A stretch of 64,000 nucleotides of DNA from a virus: IMG/VR virus record IMGVR_UViG_3300045988_160394, positions 1 through 64,000 of that record, one strand, 5' to 3'. Of the stretch, positions 3,110 to 62,888 are shown one piece after another; the first letter of the stretch is position 1; each line of letters begins with the position of its first letter. Below the pieces are notes generated by a model. The model saw only the letters and a program-made list of their open reading frames with translations. It ran no database searches and was not told the origin of the DNA. The position numbers and the translations under genes were made by a program.

Positions 3110-3430
3110 ATGGACCAAAAAAAAGTACAATCAATAGATAAAAAGTCAAAAGAACTAGAAGAGAAAATAGGTTTTTCATTTGGAAGTTTATTATATATAG
3201 ATAGTCAAATAGAGAAAAGTTTAGAATTTAATTCTGTAGTATTAAATGAGTTAAAAGAAAATTTATCTAATTTGAAAAATAGTTCTTTACCAGATAATGT
3301 AGTAGAGCCTATAATAAAAGAGATGAATACTCAAATAGAACATGTAGAAAGCGAAATAAGATGTGCTGAAAAAGTTAGAGAAGGCGTAAAGAAAAATGCA
3401 GCTAGATACAAGGAGGAAATAGGATGGTAA
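3110..3430 (+). CDS. coiled-coil protein (106 aa)
   Basis: AAGGAGG RBS; heptad-like, E/K-rich sequence. Confidence 0.5.
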   Translation: MDQKKVQSIDKKSKELEEKIGFSFGSLLYIDSQIEKSLEFNSVVLNELKENLSNLKNSSLPDNVVEPIIKEMNTQIEHVESEIRCAEKVREGVKKNAARYKEEIGW

Positions 3431-3579
3431 TTGGATTTATAGTTACGATGGCCTTATCATTCGTAGGATATGAAATAAACAATGCATTACCAAATTACAA
3501 CTATTTATTCTGTACTGTTTGGGGATGTTTTATGACGTTAGTAAATTTATATTTAAATAAAACATTAGATTTTAAATAA
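3424..3579 (+). CDS. small membrane protein (51 aa)
   Basis: ATG overlaps the upstream stop (ATGGTAA); two hydrophobic segments. Confidence 0.4.
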   Translation: MVIGFIVTMALSFVGYEINNALPNYNYLFCTVWGCFMTLVNLYLNKTLDFK

Positions 3580-3595
3580 AAAGGAGAGAGGTATT

Positions 3596-4210
3596 ATGAA
3601 ATTAGAGTTTAAAGGGCCTTTAATGGTTAATCCAGATCTTGTATTATTTTTTGAATTAAAAGAAAGAGAGTTATTTGATAATATTAAAAAGACTTATGTT
3701 TTAGATAAAGATAATGATTTTGAAGAAAAGTTTGTTGTTGAAGAAGGTAATTTTTTAAATCCTAAAACTTTTCGCAAAATTCCATCATTTATAGTTAAAA
3801 AGACTTCAAAATGTACAGAAGAAGATGTAGCTTACTTAAAAGGTTTATATGAAGTTGAAAAGAAAAAATATATAGTTAAAATAAAAAATCAATTATCAGA
3901 AGTACCTTTATCAGTAAGAGTAGAACAAAATAGCGATATTGTAGTTTATGTTGAAGAAGAATATTTTGAAAAAGTGAATGAAGTGCCTTATTTAGATTAT
4001 TCAGATAAGGATTTATATATAATAAGATTATCTAGCATTCTTCAAGATCATATAACACCTTTAAATAATGCTTTTAAAGGAAAGACATTGACTGAAGATA
4101 ATATTAATTCATATAAATCTTATTTAGAACTAGAATACAACAATAATATGTTAAATAAAATAAGAGAATTAATAGATACAACAATAGATTACAAAGTAGC
4201 AGTTAGTTAA
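3596..4210 (+). CDS. hypothetical protein (204 aa)
   Basis: AAGGAGAGAGG RBS; no motif. Confidence 0.6.
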   Translation: MKLEFKGPLMVNPDLVLFFELKERELFDNIKKTYVLDKDNDFEEKFVVEEGNFLNPKTFRKIPSFIVKKTSKCTEEDVAYLKGLYEVEKKKYIVKIKNQLSEVPLSVRVEQNSDIVVYVEEEYFEKVNEVPYLDYSDKDLYIIRLSSILQDHITPLNNAFKGKTLTEDNINSYKSYLELEYNNNMLNKIRELIDTTIDYKVAVS

Positions 4211-8037: not shown

Positions 8038-8038
8038 T

Positions 8039-8227
8039 ATGAGAGTTATAAATGATACTTATATTCTTAAAAGAATATATGAGTTCAATGATAAAGAAGA
8101 ATATGAAAATTCTTTAGATATGTTAAACAATAACGGTTTTACTCCTTGTGAAGATTTATATAAAGTTGGAGATAAATTGTATTGTAAATTTATTAGATTA
8201 GAGTTAGGATGTGTGTCTTATGAGTAA
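8039..8227 (+). CDS. hypothetical protein (62 aa)
   Basis: TAATATG junction with the upstream gene; no motif. Confidence 0.5.
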   Translation: MRVINDTYILKRIYEFNDKEEYENSLDMLNNNGFTPCEDLYKVGDKLYCKFIRLELGCVSYE

Positions 8228-8231
8228 ACGG

Positions 8232-8348
8232 ATGGAAATAGTAAAAGGAGCTTTAATGTTAGCAGGTATACTGTTTGTAGTTACTAACTTTCCAATAGTA
8301 ATAGTTCTTGGTATAGTATTCTTGCTATTAAAAGCTTTAAGTAGATAA
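8232..8348 (+). CDS. small membrane protein (38 aa)
   Basis: Single long hydrophobic helix; fills an ORF-track gap. Confidence 0.4.
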   Translation: MEIVKGALMLAGILFVVTNFPIVIVLGIVFLLLKALSR

Positions 8349-8393
8349 ATCATATATTAATGTATAAAGATAAAAACTAAAGGTGGTTTTAAT

Positions 8394-8870
8394 ATGAAAG
8401 ATACATTAATAATAAGTGGATTTCCTGGCGTAGGTAAAAGCTATTTTAAAAACAATAATAGCAAATTAACTATATTAGATAGTGATAGTAGTAATTTCAG
8501 TTGATTAAAAGATAAAGATGGAAATAATACAAAAGAAAGAGATCCTGAATTCCCTAATAATTATATACAGCATATAAAAGATAATATGGGCAAAGTAGAT
8601 ATTATTTTTGTAAGTAGTCATGATGTTGTTAGACAAGCATTAAAAGATAATAATATGTTTTATTATTTAGTTTATCCTTGTAGATGTATAAAGGATGAAT
8701 ATTTACAAAGATATAAGGATAGAGGAAACAATAATTCTTTTATAGAATTTATAGATAAAAATTGAGAAGATTTTATAAAAGATATAGAAAAAGAAACGTT
8801 CCCTAAATTAATATTATTAAGAAGAGGACAACATATGAGAGATGCAGTCGCATTGTTAAGAGAAGTTTAA
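8394..8870 (+). CDS. P-loop NTPase / nucleotide-kinase-like protein with two in-frame TGA codons (8502-8504, 8763-8765)
   Basis: AAAGGTGG RBS; Walker A GFPGVGKS. The frame stays open for 158 codons if TGA is read (..SSNFS-TGA-LKDKDG.., ..FIDKN-TGA-EDFIKD..). A terminator follows the TAA. Confidence 0.55.
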
Positions 8871-8890
8871 TAGCTTCTCTTTTTATTTTA
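8858..8890 (+). terminator. Rho-independent terminator
   Basis: AAGAGAAG / CTTCTCTT stem followed by TTTTATTTT. Confidence 0.6.
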
Positions 8891-8912
8891 TAAAAAACTA
8901 GGAGGAAATAGT

Positions 8913-9029
8913 ATGTTAGCATTTTTTCAAACATTATTTGTAGGATTTGTAGGTTTTGTTAAGGAGTTTGTAAAAACTTTAGTTATTGACACTTTAGTTG
9001 GTGTTGTATTAAGACCAGTAGGATTATAA
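8913..9029 (+). CDS. small membrane protein (38 aa)
   Basis: TAGGAGGA RBS; hydrophobic. Confidence 0.4.
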   Translation: MLAFFQTLFVGFVGFVKEFVKTLVIDTLVGVVLRPVGL

Positions 9030-9059
9030 GATTAAAAATAGAATAAGGAGAATTATAAG

Positions 9060-50295: not shown

Positions 50296-51636
50296 ATGGC
50301 AACTAAATGTATAAAAATAGCTTTTGATTTTGCAAAAGATAATACTATAGATAAAAAAGATTTTTATAAAGAATTAAGAGATATAAATTATAAAACATGG
50401 TTGGCTTGTAATAGAGCTATTACTTACTTTTATACTAACGATATGCAGAATATGGTTCAAAAAGATATTGGTATTCCTAAACAAGATGATAAAGAACTGT
50501 TTGGAAAAAGTTTCGGAGCTTGGGTAGAAAACAGAATGAATGAGTTAATGGAAGGATGTTTATCTACTAATGTAGCTCAAACAAGACAATTTGTTGCTAA
50601 TAGATATGCTCAAGATAAAAAGAATGGGCTATTTAAAGGTCAAGTATCTTTAACTCAATTTAAAAAAGATATACCAATAATAGTTCATAATAAAGCTTAT
50701 AATATTATAGATACTGATAAAGGATTAGGTGTAGAAGTAAGTCTTTTTAATAAAGAAAAACAGAAAGAATTAAACGTTAAAAAGATTAAATTAGTATTTC
50801 CTAAATTAGATGGATCTTCTAAAGCTACGCTAATTAAAATAATGGATAAAACTTATAAACAAGGTTCAATACAAATAACTTATAATGAAAGAAAAAGAAA
50901 ATGGATGATGATTATAAGTTATACTTTTGAAGCTATTAAAGATGAAACATTAAATGAAGATATTACATTAGGAATAGATTTAGGTATAGTTAATGTGGCT
51001 ACTATGTCTTTATATGATTCTAAAAATAATAGTTTTAATAGCATAGCTTGGAAAGAAAGAATTATACCAGGGGATGAGCTTATACATTATAGACAAAAGA
51101 TAGAAGCTAGAAGAAAATCTTTATATATAGCTACTAAATGGTCTAGTGATAATGCTTCAGGCCATGGTTATAAAAGAAAAACAAAGACAGCTAATAAAAT
51201 AAGTGATAAGTATTCAAGATTTAGAGATACTTATAATCATAAGATATCTAGATATATAGTAGATTTAGCTATTAAACATAAAGCTAAGAATATACAAATG
51301 GAAGACTTAAGTGGTTTTTCAGATTATCAATCAGAAAGTTTATTAGCTAACTGGAGTTACTACGATCTTCAACAAAAGATAAAATATAAAGCCGAAGGAA
51401 AAGGTATTAATGTTATATTCATTAATCCACAATATACTTCTAAAAGATGTAGTAAATGTGGTAATATACACGAAGAGAATAGAGATTGTAAAAACAATCA
51501 GGCTAAATTCGAATGTATAGTATGCGGTCATAAAGAGAATGCAGATATAAATGCTAGTAAGAATATAGCTATACCACAAATTGATACTGTAATAAAAGAA
51601 TATATAAAAGATAAAAAAGAGGCTGCTATAAGTTAG
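50296..51636 (+). CDS. cas12f: miniature RNA-guided nuclease, Cas12f-type (TnpB-derived), 446 aa
   Basis: RuvC-I GIDLG (D228, nt 50977-50979), RuvC-II IQMEDL (E336, 51301-51303), zinc ribbon YTSKRCSKCG...CIVCG, RuvC-III NADINASKNIA (D417, 51544-51546). From memory, the C-terminal 220 aa run collinear with Firmicute Cas12f1 proteins (..FRDT.NH..SRYIVD.AIK.....IQMEDL...NW.YYDLQQKI.YKAE..GI.V..I.PQYTS.RCS.CG). Confidence 0.85.
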   Translation: MATKCIKIAFDFAKDNTIDKKDFYKELRDINYKTWLACNRAITYFYTNDMQNMVQKDIGIPKQDDKELFGKSFGAWVENRMNELMEGCLSTNVAQTRQFVANRYAQDKKNGLFKGQVSLTQFKKDIPIIVHNKAYNIIDTDKGLGVEVSLFNKEKQKELNVKKIKLVFPKLDGSSKATLIKIMDKTYKQGSIQITYNERKRKWMMIISYTFEAIKDETLNEDITLGIDLGIVNVATMSLYDSKNNSFNSIAWKERIIPGDELIHYRQKIEARRKSLYIATKWSSDNASGHGYKRKTKTANKISDKYSRFRDTYNHKISRYIVDLAIKHKAKNIQMEDLSGFSDYQSESLLANWSYYDLQQKIKYKAEGKGINVIFINPQYTSKRCSKCGNIHEENRDCKNNQAKFECIVCGHKENADINASKNIAIPQIDTVIKEYIKDKKEAAIS

Positions 51637-51717
51637 TAGTCTCTTTAGCTATATTTAAAGACCGTAGGGCAGGAAGAACTATATCTAAAAATGGAATGAT
51701 AGAATTGGTTATAAAAT

Positions 51718-51856
51718 AAAGGTTGATTTACCAGCCTAAAGATGAGATAGTGATTTCTATTAGAAATAATACTCTCATTAAACGCTCCAACTAGATTGGT
51801 AAAAGGCTAGTGCAAAACAATAATATTATTGGGCGTGTACTAGGATATAGCTTTTG
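51718..51856 (+). ncRNA. tracrRNA/omegaRNA-like structured RNA, copy 1
   Basis: Nested stems TTTACCA(51727-33)/TGGTAAA(51797-803) and ATGAGA(51742-47)/TCTCAT(51773-78); conserved in copy 2 with compensatory changes; ends in CTTTTG. Strand and ends are inferred. Confidence 0.55.
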
Positions 51857-52018
51857 TTAATATTTAATAAAATGATTTAAATATAAGGGTTTAATATTAA
51901 CATAAGATGTATTTAAATTTAAACAATCTATGTGTAGGACAGTTCCTGTACTAAGTTTAATATTAACATAGGATGTATTTAAATGTAGAATCAATATTAG
52001 CATAAGGTATATTTTAAT
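51855..52018 (+). CRISPR. mini CRISPR-like array 1
   Basis: Two 30-nt repeats, GTTTAATATTAACATAAGATGTATTTAAAT (51889-51918) and the same with one mismatch (51955-51984), separated by 36 nt. Degenerate repeat copies flank them at 51855-51882 and 51989-52018. Confidence 0.5.
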
Positions 52019-52081
52019 TTACTCCAAGTAGTTCATTATAAAAGCATATTTAATGACTTTCAATATAATTTATAAAAAGAT

Positions 52082-52246
52082 AAAGGGTGTTTTACCATCC
52101 TAAAAGTGAGAAAGTGATTTTGGAAACGGCTTAAATGATAAGCTTAAAATAAATTTAATACTCTCACTAAACGCTCCAATAAAGTTATTGGTAAAAAGCT
52201 AGTGCAAAATGATTAAATTCAGGCGTGTACTAGAATACATTTTTTA
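52082..52246 (+). ncRNA. tracrRNA/omegaRNA-like structured RNA, copy 2
   Basis: Homologous to copy 1 with a roughly 25-nt larger variable loop; stems TTTACCA(52091-97)/TGGTAAA(52189-95) and AGTGAGA(52105-11)/TCTCACT(52162-68); ends in a small hairpin plus TTTTTATT. Confidence 0.55.
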
Positions 52247-52277
52247 TTAAAGTAAACGGATTGGCTTAAATATACTG

Positions 52278-52338
52278 GTTGAACTTTAACAAGAATTGTA
52301 TTTAAAGATGTGCTCTTTTGGCACTAATGTATTTAAAG
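52278..52338 (+). CRISPR. degenerate CRISPR-like unit 2
   Basis: GTTGAACTTTAACAAGAATTGTATTTAAAG (about 22/30 identity to the array-1 repeat), then 20 nt (ATGTGCTCTTTTGGCACTAA), then an 11-nt repeat 3' fragment TGTATTTAAAG. Confidence 0.35.
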
Positions 52339-52382
52339 AAATATTAATTAAGATTTGATATTGATATATATGTTAAAATAAA

Positions 52383-52408
52383 TACTCTTCCCAATTGAGG
52401 GAAGAGTA
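52383..52408. other. GC-containing hairpin closing the non-coding locus
   Basis: TACTCTTCCC / GGGAAGAGTA stem with AATTGA loop; no T-run on the + strand (an A-run lies upstream), so its terminator role is unclear. Confidence 0.35.
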
Positions 52409-52426
52409 AAGTTAAAGGAGATTTTT

Positions 52427-52993
52427 ATGATATTGTATCATGTAAGTGAAAATTTGAACAATTATATTGATGTTTTCTATCCAAGAATACCATCTGAAGA
52501 TAGAATGTGTCTAGGAGAAAATATTTCCATAAAAAGAGTATGCGTATCATCAAATATAGCTGGAGCTTTTTCTGCTATGCCAAGAGAAGATGATATAGCT
52601 AATAAGAAGTTTAGAGTATATGAATTTGAATTAGACGAAAAAGATAAAGATTTATTAGATTATAAAACAATATATAATAGAAATTATGTTCAAGATAGTT
52701 TATGTACTAAAGAACATTGGATATTAAAAAATATTAAGCCATCAAGGCATTATGATATAATAGTAAAAAGTTATGATAATGAATTGATACCTGTTTTACG
52801 TAAAGATTTATGGAAAACTTATTTTAATACATACGCAGATGATCAAGATGCTTTCTTAGAGAAAAACGGTGGCTTTTTAATGTCAGCTTTTAAAAAAGTA
52901 TTTTATATAAAAGATAATGTCGAATTTATATCTGAAAATGATATATATGAATATTTAAATTATGATAGGAGTGATATTAATGGTTTATATTAA
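52427..52993 (+). CDS. hypothetical protein (188 aa)
   Basis: AAAGGAG RBS; no motif recognised. Confidence 0.55.
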   Translation: MILYHVSENLNNYIDVFYPRIPSEDRMCLGENISIKRVCVSSNIAGAFSAMPREDDIANKKFRVYEFELDEKDKDLLDYKTIYNRNYVQDSLCTKEHWILKNIKPSRHYDIIVKSYDNELIPVLRKDLWKTYFNTYADDQDAFLEKNGGFLMSAFKKVFYIKDNVEFISENDIYEYLNYDRSDINGLY

Positions 52994-59526: not shown

Positions 59527-60258
59527 ATGGATAAGTTTCAGATTAAGATATTAAACCCAGAAGAAGTAAAGACATTATTTAAACGTTGAGGGACGTTCGC
59601 ATGTAAATGTTATGACACTCCTGCTAAATATGCAGAAAGAGTTGGTAAATCATGCTTACAATCAGGACACTTTTCAGGATCAAGAAGTATATATATAGAA
59701 ATAGATGTTAGTAATGTACCTAGAGCTCTTGTAGATCAAATAATAAGAAGAGAACAAGGATGCGTTAAAAACGTTGAATCTGGTAGATATGTAGATTTCT
59801 CAGATTTTGATTATTATACTTCACCATTAATAGCTAATGATCCAATAGCTAAAGAGATATATGATGAACACATGAAAGCTACTAGAGAAGTTTATTCTTT
59901 ATTAGTTAAAAGATTAAATGAAAAAGGGATAACTGGTGAAAGAGCCTTTGAAGCAGCTAGAGGAGTTGCTCCTATGAACTATAGAACAGGTATGGTTCTA
60001 GGATTAACATTAGAAGCTTTAATAGGCTTATGTCATGAAAGATTATGTAGTAGAACTCAAGAACATTCTAGACATTTAATCAAGATGATAAGAGATGAGG
60101 TTCTAAAGCTTATACCTGAGTTAGAGCCATATTTAGTAGTGAAATGTGATTATCTACAATGGTGTCCAGAAGGAAGTAAATGTTGTGGTAGAAAACCAAC
60201 TAGAAAAGAATTCTTAGAATTTATTGATTCTAATAAAGTTAAAGGGAGTGTTAAGTAA
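59527..60258 (+). CDS. thyX: flavin-dependent thymidylate synthase ThyX with in-frame TGA (59587-59589)
   Basis: ATG after AGGAGG; the frame is continuous with ORF-track 59872-60258 if TGA is read; ..SGHFSGSRS.., ThyX-motif-like RREQGCVKNVESGRY, ..ARGVAPMNYRT.. helical region. Confidence 0.7.
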
Positions 60259-62888
60259 TGGCAAAGAATATAGTATTTAATTCAGATGCAAGAGAAAAGA
60301 TAAGACAAGGTGTCAATGTATTAGGAGATGCTGTTAGAGCAACTATGGGACCTAAAGGTAGAAATGCTATCTTAGAAAGAACACCTGGTTCTCCATTAAT
60401 AACTAACGATGGAGTTACTATAGCTAAAGAAATAGAATTAATAGACAATATAGAAAATATGGGAGCTCAAATAGTAAAAGAAGCAGCTATTAAGACTAAT
60501 GATGAGGCAGGAGATGGGCCACAACCTTTATATTCTAAAATATTAACACCTAATGGTTGGACTACTATGGGTGAAATAAAAAAAGGTGATGTTATATGTG
60601 GTACAAATAATACTCATCAAACAGTATTAGAAGTTTATCCTAAAGGGAAAAAAGAATTGGTTATAATTACATTCTCTAATGGCAAACAAGTTCATTGCTG
60701 TCAAGATCATTTATGGACTATAAATACAAGCTATGGAAAAAGAAAAACCATGACAACAAGAGAAATGATAAACAAAGGCGTATACAAACTTAATAGCCAA
60801 GGTGATAAAAGATATAATTTCTATACACCTTCTAACACAGTAGAGTTTCAAGAAAAAGAATTACCGATACATCCATACCTTTTAGGTGCTCTATTAGGAG
60901 ATGGCTCATTAACTGGGACAGGGAATATAGAATTAAGCTTAGGATATAATAAAGAGCACATAATAGAAAAAATATATCCGATATTACCTGACAATATACA
61001 AATATCAATACAGGATTGTTTAGACAAGAATTGTTATAGAGTCAAATTTTCAAAAATAGATAAAACTAATCCTATTTCTATGGAAAGTTTACTTAATGAA
61101 TTAAATCTATTAGGAACTAATAGTAAAAATAAATTTATACCTGAAATTTATTTATATAATTCAGTTGAAAATAGAACACAATTGTTAAATGGTTTAATAG
61201 ATACAGATGGATATAACAATAATAGAGGATTGTTTGAATTTTCTACTGTTAGCGATAAACTTAATGAATCCTTCACAGAATTAGTTAATAGCTTAGGAAT
61301 TCAAACATCATATACTTTACACAAAAGAGATAATGACTTATTATCTTATTCTTTCAATCCTATTCATAGACATACTCAATTAAAAGGTTATAAATATGGA
61401 ATAAAAATAGTAGATATTGAAGTTGTTAATAAACTAGAAGAAATGAAATGTATAAAAGTATCAAATCAAGATAATTTATATATAACAGATGGATATATAG
61501 TAACACACAACACTACTACAGCTACAGTTTTAGCACAAGCAATCATAAATGAAGGTTATAATGCTCTTTCTACAACTGAAGATGTTTCAGAAGAAGAAAA
61601 GAATCAATCTATATACAAAGGTGCCAATCCTGTTTTATTAAAGAAAGGTATAGAAATAGCTACTAAAATAGCAATAGATGAATTAAAAGCTATAGCTAAG
61701 CCTATAGAAACAGATGAAGAAATAAAACAAATAGCAACTATATCTTCTGCTAGTGATGATATAGGAGAATTAATATCTCAAGCTATTAAAAGAGTAGGTA
61801 AAGACGGTATAATTACTACTACTGAATCACATACTATAGAAACTACTTTAGAAGTTAAAGAAGGTTTTGAATTTGACAGAGGTTTTTATTCACCTTACTT
61901 TGCTGATGATCAAGAAAAAATAGAATCTGTTTTTTATAATCCATTAATACTTGTAAGTGATCAAAAGATGAGAACTCAACAAGAAATAGTACCTTTATTA
62001 GAACAAGTGTTAAAAGTTCAAAGACCTATAGTGTTTATAGTTGATGAAATAGAACAAATCGTATTCTCTTCTTTATTAAGAAATAAAATGAATGGGAATA
62101 TGGATGTAGCAGTAATAAAAGCACCTGGATTTGGGGCAAAAAGAAAAGAGCTATTACAAGATATAGCTATTTTAACAGGAGCAACTTTTATATCTGAAGA
62201 ATACGCTTTAACTATGTCAGAAGCTAGAATAAACTTATTAGGTTCATGCGAGTCTATAAAGATAACTAAAAATAATACTATTATATTTAATGGTTCTGGA
62301 GATAAAGAAGAAATAAATAAAAGAGCAGAACACATTAAGAATAGTATTAATGCTGATAATATATCAGAATACGATAAAGAAAAACTAGAAGAAAGATTAG
62401 CTAAAATAACAGGTGGTATAGCTACTATAAAAATAGGAGCTGCTACAGAGCCTGAATTAAAAGAGAAAAAGTTAAGAATAGAAGATGCTATTAATGCCAC
62501 TAAAGCAGCTATAGAAGAAGGAATAGTTGCAGGTGGTGGAACAGCTTTATTTAATCTTTCACCAGTAATATTAGAAAAGACTAAAAACTTAGTAGGAGAT
62601 GTATATCAAGGAGCATTATGTGTAGCATTAGCTGTTAATTCTCCAATAATACAAATAGCTATGAATGCAGGTGTAAATGCTACTAAGGTTATGGAAAATG
62701 TTTTAAAGACAGCTAAAGAAAAAAGCAATCCTAATATAGGATATGATGCTTATAATGATGCTTATGTTGATATGTTAGAAGTAGGAATAATAGATCCTGT
62801 AAAAGTTACTAGAAATGCATTACAAAATGCAGCTTCAGTAGCTGCTATACTGTTAACAACAGATGTAACTATAAGCAACTTTCAATAA
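60258..62888 (+). CDS. groEL: chaperonin GroEL (Cpn60) precursor interrupted by an intein
   Basis: Exteins (87 + 458 aa) carry GroEL signatures: AR....GV..L.DAV..T.GPKGRN, ITNDGVTIAKEIEL, AGDG|TTTATVLA, GGG.ALF, IIDP.KVTR.ALQNAASVA. TAATG overlap with thyX. Confidence 0.95.
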   Translation: MAKNIVFNSDAREKIRQGVNVLGDAVRATMGPKGRNAILERTPGSPLITNDGVTIAKEIELIDNIENMGAQIVKEAAIKTNDEAGDGPQPLYSKILTPNGWTTMGEIKKGDVICGTNNTHQTVLEVYPKGKKELVIITFSNGKQVHCCQDHLWTINTSYGKRKTMTTREMINKGVYKLNSQGDKRYNFYTPSNTVEFQEKELPIHPYLLGALLGDGSLTGTGNIELSLGYNKEHIIEKIYPILPDNIQISIQDCLDKNCYRVKFSKIDKTNPISMESLLNELNLLGTNSKNKFIPEIYLYNSVENRTQLLNGLIDTDGYNNNRGLFEFSTVSDKLNESFTELVNSLGIQTSYTLHKRDNDLLSYSFNPIHRHTQLKGYKYGIKIVDIEVVNKLEEMKCIKVSNQDNLYITDGYIVTHNTTTATVLAQAIINEGYNALSTTEDVSEEEKNQSIYKGANPVLLKKGIEIATKIAIDELKAIAKPIETDEEIKQIATISSASDDIGELISQAIKRVGKDGIITTTESHTIETTLEVKEGFEFDRGFYSPYFADDQEKIESVFYNPLILVSDQKMRTQQEIVPLLEQVLKVQRPIVFIVDEIEQIVFSSLLRNKMNGNMDVAVIKAPGFGAKRKELLQDIAILTGATFISEEYALTMSEARINLLGSCESIKITKNNTIIFNGSGDKEEINKRAEHIKNSINADNISEYDKEKLEERLAKITGGIATIKIGAATEPELKEKKLRIEDAINATKAAIEEGIVAGGGTALFNLSPVILEKTKNLVGDVYQGALCVALAVNSPIIQIAMNAGVNATKVMENVLKTAKEKSNPNIGYDAYNDAYVDMLEVGIIDPVKVTRNALQNAASVAAILLTTDVTISNFQ
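60519..61511 (+). mobile_element. intein (331 aa) with LAGLIDADG homing-endonuclease domain; class-3-like W/C/T signature
   Basis: Inserted between G87 and T of the DG|TTT loop. Block A-like PQPLYSKILTPNGW; block B ..QDHLW (W, nt 60714-60716); LAGLIDADG motifs LLGALLGDGSL and LNGLIDTDGY; block F MKCIKV (C, nt 61449-61451); block G GYIVTHN followed by +1 Thr. Confidence 0.85.

Follow-up and report, generated by a model that had tools for sequence, protein, structure and literature searches.

Here, we analyzed the first 64,000 nucleotides of the IMG/VR virus record IMGVR_UViG_3300045988_160394 (hereafter "the window"), with a focus on a compact locus at positions 50,296 to 52,426. This locus starts with an open reading frame (ORF) for a 446-aa protein, a predicted miniature RNA-guided nuclease of the Cas12f1 family. 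It is followed by a 790-nt gap that holds two predicted, paralogous trans-activating RNAs (tracrRNAs) of a CRISPR system, each succeeded by its own mini-array. The order of nuclease, tracr-like RNA and array is that of type V-F systems, as a previous reading of the letters alone (the sequence-only reading) had proposed and as held in the present analysis. The coordinates of all features are collected in Table 1.

The predicted Cas12f1 nuclease

Judged by its sequence, the ORF at 50296–51636 encodes a full-length Cas12f1 of type V-F1 (formerly V-U3). The RuvC triad is intact (D228 in GIDLG, E336 in QMEDL and D417 in NADINA), and the zinc ribbon comprises the CxxC pairs C385/C388 and C407/C410 (Cas12f1-like_TNB domain, 77 bits). 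The alignment of these catalytic and zinc motifs with those of AsCas12f1 confirmed the residues named in the sequence-only reading. A comparison with protein profiles and structures, suggested there as a check, likewise placed the protein with Cas12f1. In a phmmer search against all PDB chains, AsCas12f1 was the best match (8j12, 8j1j, 8j3r, 8dzj and 7wju; E = 4.5e-69), followed by other Cas12f1 entries (1e-59 and 4.5e-52) and by Un1Cas12f1/Cas14a (about 1e-26), whereas entries labelled TnpB reached 1e-34 or worse. As the match to AsCas12f1 covers residues 9–438, the family proposed earlier stands, but the likeness is not limited to the C-terminal half, as had been stated; the homology is full-length.

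Among the PADLOC models, Cas12u3, the old name of V-F1, scored best (4.1e-119), with Cas12f at 1.9e-118. The curated TnpB models remained far under their cut-offs (IS200_TnpB, 66.8 versus 425 bits; IS607_TnpB, 38.5 versus 350 bits). Pfam OrfB_IS605 matched with 31.4 bits, and the generic guided_TnpB subfamily model of NCBIfam passed its own cut-off. The gene is present once in the window and, in the relatives, at one place per plasmid record. A terminator-like hairpin over its stop codon may separate the mRNA from the tracr transcripts. Characterized Cas12f1 enzymes (AsCas12f1, SpCas12f1 and Un1Cas12f1) act as asymmetric homodimers on one guide RNA and cleave about 24 nt from the protospacer-adjacent motif (PAM) (PMC7229846, PMC12255294).

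Adaptation genes are absent from systems of type V-U3/V-F1, which are found in Clostridia and Bacilli (PMC7229846). In agreement with the sequence-only reading, neither cas1, cas2, cas4 nor a Y1 transposase gene (tnpA) was present among the PADLOC and Pfam families listed for the 97 ORFs of the 64 kb; these were the best 25 of 31 and the best 25 of 29 families, respectively, and very weak matches may escape.

Two predicted tracrRNA modules in a non-coding gap

The gap between the cas12f stop codon and the next ORF (start 52427) contains no plus-strand ORF of at least 30 aa. At an ORF cut-off of 70 aa, it ranks second among the non-coding stretches of the window behind a longer one at 8038–9059. 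Because the latter is filled by small head-to-tail plus-strand ORFs (62, 45, 36, 59 and 38 aa; no Rfam family there), the earlier description of the 790-nt gap as the longest non-coding stretch is fair.

Each module alone folds into the same helix series, ending in a duplex of the anti-repeat with the first downstream repeat. We aligned 14 modules from nine loci, namely the window, two sister phages, elements of Clostridium perfringens, C. baratii, C. botulinum, C. tetani and C. estertheticum, and one IMG/VR contig. RNAalifold recovers the helices on this alignment. Across seven helices (39 pairs), 95.4% of the cells form standard pairs, compared with 23–44% when the partners are slid by 1–3 columns. 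Compensatory changes on both sides were found at 14 pairs versus 2–4 in the slid controls, and none of 500 shuffles reached the observed values. Covariation was also seen for the candidate pseudoknot (an ACGC-type strand with a GCGU-type strand) and for the anti-repeat:repeat helix.

The covariance model of the scaffold detects exactly two strong copies in the window (135 and 162 bits), in line with the two tandem structured-RNA modules described in the sequence-only reading. A third match (62720–62841, 18.6 bits) lies within an ORF and was treated as noise. The module 2 scaffold is closest to the array-bearing module of the C. perfringens cassettes. The predicted duplex of anti-repeat 1 with repeat R1a has an energy of −15.6 kcal/mol, versus −6.3 ± 2.1 kcal/mol for shuffled repeats; anti-repeat 2 reaches −16.1 kcal/mol with R2a versus −12.2 kcal/mol with R1a.

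The direct repeats were found where the sequence-only reading had placed them, including the near-identical module 1 pair. At gathering score, R1a, R1b and R2a are the only Rfam matches in the whole window (CRISPR-DR3, 42.2–42.7 bits; cut-off 41).

Table 1 Features of the cas12f1 locus and of the second repeat system in relatives. Positions refer to the window unless a comparison locus (L number) is given.
Feature	Position	Strand	Remarks
cas12f1 gene	50296..51636	+	446 aa; predicted type V-F1/V-U3 effector
Terminator-like hairpin over the cas12f stop codon	51616..51646	+	13-bp stem followed by T-rich tail; consensus match only
tracrRNA module 1 scaffold (predicted)	51716..51843	+	Stem 1, long stem 2, pseudoknot strand, stems 3 and 4; covariance model 135.2 bits, E = 2.7e-33
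Anti-repeat 1 (3' end of tracrRNA 1)	51844..51870	+	51845–51867 pairs with 51890–51912; helix 7 covaries
Repeat R1a (GTTTAATATTAACATAAGATGTATTTAAAT)	51889..51918	+	Clostridium type I-B repeat family
Sole full spacer of module 1, 36 nt	51919..51954	+	Unrelated spacers in L010 and L005, flanks conserved
Repeat R1b	51955..51984	+	1 mismatch to R1a; starts 66 nt after the R1a start
Degenerate terminal repeat R1c	51989..52018	+	4 nt after R1b; kept in L010
tracrRNA module 2 scaffold (predicted)	52080..52233	+	Covariance model 162.5 bits, E = 1.9e-40; architecture as module 1, stem 2 longer
Anti-repeat 2	52234..52262	+	Covaries with the repeat across modules
Repeat R2a (GTTGAACTTTAACAAGAATTGTATTTAAAG)	52278..52307	+	Module 2
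20-nt guide-like sequence of module 2 (ATGTGCTCTTTTGGCACTAA)	52308..52327	+	L010: one single-nucleotide difference and a 4-nt insertion; L166: different
Truncated repeat, 3' 12 nt (TGTATTTAAAGA)	52328..52339	+	Bases for pairing with the anti-repeat, on its scaffold-proximal side, are retained
Possible second guide unit of module 2 (speculative)	52340..52382	+	Up to the terminal hairpin; equivalents differ in L010 and L166
10-bp GC-rich hairpin closing the locus	52383..52408	.	Conserved in L010 and L166
C. perfringens module A with 36-nt repeat family	L007 6337–6535; L016 5201–5620; L153 2827–3075	L016: reverse	One cas12f, two tracrRNA paralogues, two repeat families

Relatives, spacer turnover and targets

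Copies of the nuclease with 96–99% identity are found on contigs of 257–264 kb from other samples (L010, 99%; L005, 96%). More distant relatives form a large family in C. perfringens (about 75% identity) and occur in C. botulinum, C. tetani, C. baratii and C. estertheticum (40–60%). All of these Clostridium relatives reside on plasmids, prophages or phage-plasmids. The syntenic order of nuclease, tracr and array is kept across at least 10 diverse elements, and in some relatives the tracr begins at the stop codon of the gene. In the databases, the relatives are named "transposase" or "TnpB family". The same annotation ("transposase") is given to full-length homologs of about 33% identity in two cultured phages, Bacillus phage Mgbh1 (L001 3992–5293) and Alicyclobacillus phage MMB025 (L002 3986–5329). 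In MMB025, an annotated CRISPR (3751–3921) lies directly upstream of the homolog; the covariance model found no tracr of the window-clade type in either phage locus.

The window, L010 and L005 share the two-module layout and its flanks but differ in the spacers of module 1, which number one, one and at least five, respectively. In the C. perfringens cassettes, the tracr-proximal spacer varies among strains and the distal one is shared, which is the polarity expected for leader-end acquisition.

Spacers of the relatives point to mobile elements as targets. The single module 1 spacer of L010 matches the C. perfringens plasmid pCPCPN17a_1 at 34 of 35 positions, next to a TTTA flank. Nine further spacers match Clostridium plasmids, phage-plasmids and phages: tail, tape-measure, capsid and DUF6673 genes of 40–55 kb C. 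perfringens phage-plasmids, the phages LPCPA58 and vB_CpeS-1181, and plasmids of C. botulinum, C. tetani and C. estertheticum. A perfect target is provided by pZ1323HCP0095-4, which has the same phage-plasmid backbone as the cassette carriers but lacks the cassette. The 5' flank at positions −3 to −1 reads TCA in 7/10 spacer-target pairs (TTA, TCG and TCT in one each; P about 2e-11 versus the background frequency of TCA), and position −4 is a T in 8/10. The strand bearing this PAM is the one that reads like the plus-strand spacer, a type V geometry, so that the CRISPR RNA (crRNA) would consist of the plus-strand repeat followed by the spacer.

The C. perfringens cassette is located within the phage head-tail module. 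It occupies two slots in the phage-plasmids, one between a minor-capsid gene and tail genes (L006–L009, L145–L152) and one between Phage_Mu_F and the DUF6275/DUF4355 scaffold genes (L153–L155), where a small helix-turn-helix gene accompanies it. These two insertion slots indicate that the cassette behaves as a mobile moron. As a side observation, genes for putative counter-defence proteins were noted near two cassettes: an Acb2/Tad1-hairpin family protein in a C. perfringens phage-plasmid (L007 228–605) and an annotated AcrIIA9-family protein on a C. estertheticum plasmid (L018 6422–6760).

Link to type I-B systems of Clostridium

The repeats of the window can be assigned to a repeat family of Clostridium type I-B systems. 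Their Rfam match is to a repeat of Clostridium type. In a pattern scan covering one genome per species, this family comprised at least 120 stretches, nearly all of them from Clostridium, and the arrays had as many as 121 repeats. At L099, such an array follows the genes for Cas7-Cas5b-Cas3-Cas4-Cas1b-Cas2 on the same strand. Its repeat (GTTGAACTTTAACATAAGATGTATTTAAAT) is identical to R1a at 27/30, to R2a at 25/30 and to the C. perfringens cassette repeat at 28/30 positions, and the repeats of the cassette and of L099 have the same orientation relative to transcription. Two loci first checked for cas genes beside chromosomal arrays (L048 and L035) were uninformative. The cassette spacers (35–37 nt) have the I-B length; in C. 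autoethanogenum, the I-B repeat GTTGAACCTCAACATGAGATGTATTTAAAT is associated with spacers of 35–38 nt (PMC4022347). Moreover, the PAM of Clostridium I-B systems is TCA, with the variants TCG, TCT and TTA (PMC4860712, PMC10328091).

Given I-B-family repeats, I-B spacer length and an I-B PAM, the spacers most likely stem from insertion in trans by Cas1-Cas2-Cas4 of a host I-B system or from recombination with host arrays. In the simplest reading, the cassette tracrRNA has been fitted to the host I-B repeat, and the arrays are loaded in trans by these host proteins; spacer capture by recombination would be the alternative. The covariance model detected no Cas12f tracr beside the 120 chromosomal I-B-type array stretches (up to 8 kb fetched for each), and the tracr thus appears specific to cas12f cassettes. 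The co-occurrence of V-F1 and I-B systems and their common PAM, together with the same hypothesis on adaptation, were reported in the 2024 PAMPHLET preprint (bioRxiv 10.1101/2024.04.09.587696).

Paired modules, natural single guides and an empty-site guide in relatives

According to the covariance model, two modules are present in the window, L005, L010, L166, most C. perfringens cassettes, C. baratii (one on either side of the gene) and C. tetani, whereas L004, L016, L019, L018 and L150 have one. The two modules of the C. perfringens cassettes serve different repeats: module "B" the I-B-type repeat of 30 nt, and module "A" another family with a 36-nt repeat (GTTAAAGTACACTTTAGTTTAAAGGTATAGTAGAAC) and 30-nt spacers. 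L016 has the 36-nt type module A only. The possibility that module A lacks a repeat was rejected, as a separate 36-nt repeat family belongs to it, with partial deletion in some loci.

Natural single guides have arisen through two independent deletions, each of which joined an anti-repeat with the 3' end of its repeat. One, of about 39 nt, affects module A of L006–L009 and L145–L149 (L007 6470–6513). The other lies in module 2 of L166 (1560–1600; GAATACA-TTA-TTGTATTTAAAG) and is followed by a guide unlike that of the window. The fused module A guide carries the same 30-nt spacer (TATACTTTCAATAACGGTCATACTCTTTTT) in nine C. perfringens cassettes, and this spacer matches phage-plasmids without a cassette, with 29/30 identities in L162 (2501–2530) and 24/24 PAM-proximal identities in L012 (4201–4224), next to a TTCT flank. 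The match takes in the stop codon that ends the minor-capsid gene together with seven codons at the start of the next gene, which is the exact insertion point of the cassette in the carriers. The junction falls at about protospacer position 23–24, the place of cleavage by Cas12f1 enzymes (PMC7229846). In the carriers themselves, this site differs from the guide at positions 4, 10, 15, 16 and from 22 on (at least four mismatches within the first 20 nt). For a given point in an element of 50 kb, coverage by one of about 14 targeted protospacers would be expected by chance with a probability of about 0.008. This predicted empty-site guide could mean exclusion of rivals that lack the cassette, or true homing; TnpB shows the same homing behaviour (PMC10690162).

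The module A spacers of L016, with targets in L162 (2983–3013) and in tape-measure genes, have the flanks CCA or CTA for one spacer and CCA for a second, and the empty-site guide has TCT; none of these is TCA. This hints at a different source of spacers or at a relaxed YCA-type PAM with the same nuclease.

A related jumbo phage (L164/L165) lacks cas12f and its RNAs. In the slot between the NADAR gene and the homolog of ORF 52427–52993, it carries an ORF for a 214-aa protein (3345–3989), which may be another selfish gene in the same site. At 27.1 bits versus a cut-off of 27, this protein is a borderline match to an I-HmuI/NUMOD-like DNA-binding domain, and no nuclease domain was detected in it.

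A search of the literature for dual or duplicated tracrRNAs yielded nothing relevant to natural Cas12f loci. As far as we found, there is no earlier description of tracrRNA paralogues occurring in pairs, of their being fitted to I-B repeats on a jumbo phage, of natural fusions into single guides or of the empty-site guide.

Proposed function and alternative explanations

We consider it probable that the locus is a functional type V-F1 CRISPR-Cas12f cassette on a jumbo phage, which is used in conflicts between mobile elements and whose arrays are probably fed by host I-B adaptation proteins. One Cas12f1 nuclease would be made from 50296–51636, and two paralogous tracrRNAs (51716–51870 and 52080–52262) would be transcribed from the plus strand. 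The anti-repeat at the end of each tracrRNA would pair with the 30-nt repeats of its own mini-array, and the repeat-spacer crRNAs would guide the nuclease to double-stranded DNA with a protospacer beside a 5' T-rich PAM (TTCA or TTTA). The targets would be rival mobile elements, i.e. plasmids, phage-plasmids and other phages, in the same host cell. New spacers would be supplied by the host Cas1-Cas2-Cas4 in trans, or by recombination with host arrays. This reading draws on the protein family and its intact active site, the covarying tracrRNAs with matched anti-repeats, the spacer turnover, the mobile-element targets and PAM of the relatives, and the membership in the I-B repeat family. Among the roles suggested in the sequence-only reading, competition between phages and plasmids gains indirect support from the plasmid match of L010, the nine further spacers and their consistent PAM. 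Homing finds support in the C. perfringens relatives only, and host targeting found none.

Several points weigh against this interpretation. For the window's own 36-nt spacer, no protospacer was found in the window (up to three mismatches), in phages and plasmids (blastn), in IMG/VR (two 20–21-mers) or in JGI metagenomes (two 21–22-mers). Likewise, no target of the 20-nt module 2 guide was found in the window, phages, plasmids or IMG/VR. The search of both inter-repeat sequences that had been suggested earlier thus gave no credible target, and the targeting activity is deduced from the relatives. Module 2 looks partly decayed, with one 20-nt spacer and a truncated repeat, and is unchanged between the window and L010. 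Furthermore, anti-repeat 1 pairs with R2a as well as with R1; strict orthogonality of the two modules was therefore rejected, and they are only partly orthogonal. The T-tract of the closing hairpin is on the minus strand only, while the other features indicate plus-strand transcription of the arrays, and promoter-like sites in the locus are no commoner than in shuffled sequence. Expression, cleavage, the in-trans route of adaptation, the role of the invariant module 2 guide and the host species with its I-B system are inferred. Finally, there is no evident route by which spacers from host Cas1-Cas2 would reach a possibly lytic jumbo phage.

Some candidate targets were discarded. Two IMG/VR matches to the module 2 guide are on contigs of 58–59% GC without a T-rich flank and were ascribed to chance. 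Autoregulation via this guide found no support, since a seed scan of the window gave only an 11-nt match with a poor PAM. This match to the first 11 nt (ATGTGCTCTTT; position 60961, minus strand, flank ..CTATT), the only other one in the window, lies within a GroEL-fusion gene and is probably due to chance (about 0.03–0.1 expected). The second-unit guides, the L166 guides and the sequence after R1c had no plasmid match and, among phage records, only a chance match of 25 nt (E = 3). The guides of the sister phages (L005, L010 and L166) matched neither the window, one another nor the cassette-less relative L164/L165.

One alternative explanation is a selfish homing cassette: a hard-wired guide, in the window the invariant module 2 guide, would cut the cassette-less allele at the insertion point, and repair would copy the cassette into it. 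Such homing would be compatible with a role in competition, and the C. perfringens relatives argue for it, given the guide against their empty insertion junction with its position at the expected cut, the mismatched own site and the low chance expectation, as well as the cassette's use of two different slots. The ORF with the NUMOD domain in the window's slot of a related jumbo phage and the precedent of the TnpB ancestors, which act in exactly this way (PMC10690162), point in the same direction. However, the empty-site match covers one of the two insertion sites, and its spacer may merely exclude competitors without the cassette, with no copying involved. The NUMOD match itself is borderline, with no nuclease domain detected. 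Since no guide of the window lineage matches the sole cassette-less relative found (L164/L165, divergent with 77% identity in the neighbouring protein) or the cassette flanks, homing is a minority hypothesis for the window, which we consider unlikely. The same low probability is given to the broader proposal that Clostridium phage Cas12f cassettes are self-propagating RNA-guided homing elements with a duplicated and retargeted tracrRNA, in which the I-B-fitted module 1 would be adaptive and the module 2 guide (52308–52327) hard-wired; this guide, at times a natural single-guide RNA, would cut the cassette-less allele and drive copying into related phages.

The likeness to I-B arrays in repeat sequence (25–27/30), repeat orientation, spacer length and PAM (PMC4860712) might also mean that the mini-arrays arm the host Cascade against rivals, or act as an RNA anti-CRISPR that soaks up Cas6 and Cascade, with Cas12f being secondary. 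Viral host-type mini-arrays directed against related viruses and RNA anti-CRISPRs made of solitary repeats are established (PMC11656645). We regard such a hijack or decoy as quite unlikely, as a tracrRNA lies ahead of each array and covaries, in its anti-repeat, with that array's repeat, the tracr was found only beside cas12f and never beside the chromosomal I-B arrays examined, the synteny of nuclease, tracr and array is kept in at least 10 diverse elements, and the active site of the nuclease is intact. Both effectors, Cas12f and the host I-B system, may nevertheless use the arrays. It is very unlikely that the cassette is a decaying relic without function in this phage. The single module 1 spacer, the degenerate repeat 4 nt after R1b, the 20-nt spacer and 12-nt repeat stump of module 2 and the lack of targets for the window spacers would fit such decay, but the ORF is intact and 96–99% conserved in independent samples, both tracr scaffolds keep all helices, L005 has a longer array, and the exchange of the module 1 spacer between near-identical phages argues for recent activity of the proposed V-F1 cassette.

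The view of the locus as an ordinary TnpB insertion sequence of the IS200/IS605 type, a transposon passenger in the phage with an omega-RNA, has next to no probability left and is effectively refuted. It could invoke the database names of the relatives, the OrfB_IS605 match and the generic guided_TnpB model, and the tracr at the gene's stop codon in some relatives, which resembles an omega-RNA. Yet the nuclease is far nearer to the Cas12f1 structures than to entries labelled TnpB, and the score for IS200_TnpB is far below its cut-off. No Y1 transposase was among the families listed, and the gene is found once in the window and at one place per plasmid record. Instead of TnpA with left and right ends, a fixed guide without an array and many copies matching curated TnpB models, the cassettes have separate anti-repeats and repeat-spacer arrays with exchanged spacers that match mobile elements.

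Comparison with known systems

As a genuine type V-F1 system, the proposed cassette is a variant of a kind already published, V-F systems on mobile elements and the link to I-B both being known. It combines effector homology, an adjacent array, a computationally predicted tracrRNA with anti-repeat and the lack of an adaptation module. Like AsCas12f1 and other V-F1 systems of Clostridia and Bacilli (PMC7229846; 8j12, 8dzj, 7wju), it has a nuclease in the range of 420–500 aa with RuvC triad and zinc ribbon, the order nuclease-tracrRNA-array, no cas1, cas2 or cas4, and a T-rich PAM 5' of the protospacer, here derived from the spacers of relatives. It differs in the two tracrRNA paralogues per nuclease gene, each with a mini-array, the 30-nt I-B-family repeats, the spacers of 35–37 nt, the jumbo-phage carrier and the presence of only one or two spacers per array. 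Of the features called unusual in the sequence-only reading, the duplicated tracrRNA remains so. The mobile-element context, the tiny arrays and the missing adaptation genes are less unusual than claimed, because they are typical for V-F1/V-U3 systems and virus-borne arrays (PMC7229846, PMC8473940, PMC11656645).

The V-U "Cas14a-like" genes and arrays on botulinum neurotoxin (BoNT) phages and a PICI (phage-inducible chromosomal island) of C. botulinum group III (PMC8473940) are similar in that TnpB/Cas12f-like nucleases lie by arrays on phages and satellites of Clostridium, are found together with type I-B, and have spacers matching the species' own mobilome. Those systems have other repeats in the PICI arrays, two nuclease genes with two arrays and another phage family, and no tracrRNA analysis was given. 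V-F systems show enrichment on plasmids, and virus-borne mini-arrays whose repeats are of the host type make use of host CRISPR systems to attack related viruses (PMC11656645). The window shares with these mini-arrays one or two spacers and, in relatives, spacers that match mobile elements; its repeats, too, are probably of the host type. In contrast to them, the virus brings its own effector, an intact cas12f1, and matching tracrRNAs directly upstream whose anti-repeats fit the host-type repeat, which would render the cassette independent of a host effector. The likeness of 27/30 is to the Clostridium I-B repeat of L099, a member of a family widespread in Clostridium.

A lack of adaptation modules is also known from systems that acquire spacers in trans, such as the type IV-A3 plasmids (bioRxiv 10.1101/2023.06.23.546257), the cooperation of type III or type VI systems and the V-F1/I-B hypothesis cited above (10.1101/2024.04.09.587696). 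These share with the cassette that repeat, spacer length and PAM fit a co-resident type I system and that the role lies in conflicts between mobile elements. In the present case, the evidence comes from comparisons only, a phage acts as carrier, and the host chromosome would hold the donor system. With TnpB/omega-RNA homing in IS200/IS605 (PMC10690162), the cassettes have in common a nuclease from the family ancestral to Cas12f and, in the C. perfringens relatives, a fixed cis-fused guide against their own vacant site. Unlike those elements, they have no transposase and no insertion sequence ends, their guide takes the form of a spacer within a CRISPR-type unit, and no vacant-site match was found for the window.

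Altogether, the phage supplies its own miniature nuclease and apparently outsources the acquisition of spacers to a host type I-B system. The published but untested hypothesis that V-F1 borrows I-B adaptation thereby becomes directly testable in a defined phage-host pair. One nuclease with two predicted tracrRNA paralogues also represents a natural diversification of guide RNAs, which in the relatives extends to two repeat families and two deletion fusions into single guides. The paired tracrRNAs bear on the evolution of type V systems from TnpB, and their scaffolds offer ready variants for engineering a 446-aa editor related to AsCas12f1. If functional, the empty-site guide of the C. perfringens phage-plasmids would represent natural CRISPR-based homing or gene-drive behaviour. 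Because toxin genes reside on plasmids of C. perfringens, nucleases on phages and plasmids that control which elements coexist are also of applied interest.

Phage and genomic context

The phage context noted in the sequence-only reading is borne out by phage-type genes and by the identity of the window to part of a 263,172-bp ENA contig. The best reading of the carrier is a jumbo phage of about 263 kb, with the cassette as an accessory "moron". A 698-aa protein of the window matched 513 phage records versus only 20 plasmid records, with best matches in Bacillus jumbo phages (220–234 kb) such as SP-15 and vB_BceM_WH1. A nucleotide search of the locus against 50,697 phage records gave no match. 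The window has a GC content of 26%, and the host would be a low-GC Clostridium, probably C. perfringens. Genes in the window include those for an NAD-dependent DNA ligase, a tRNA nucleotidyltransferase, ThyX, FolD, an NMN transporter, NADAR, NUDIX and ferritin proteins and a GroEL fusion; tRNA genes are not present in the window. The direct neighbours of the cassette are the NADAR gene, an ORF for an 84-aa zinc-ribbon protein and, downstream, a 188-aa gene without Pfam match (52427–52993).

Besides the cassette, the PADLOC model for Csx1 matches one ORF of the window (E = 1.3e-24, with the flag "found elsewhere"), and others match PDC-M42C, PDC-S07 and a PemK/MazF-type toxin. The GroEL-fusion gene (60258–62888) encodes an 876-aa protein with an N-terminal P-loop region (terminase, DnaC and primase PHROGs) and a C-terminal GroEL/Cpn60 chaperonin domain, a combination that is unusual for a phage chaperonin.

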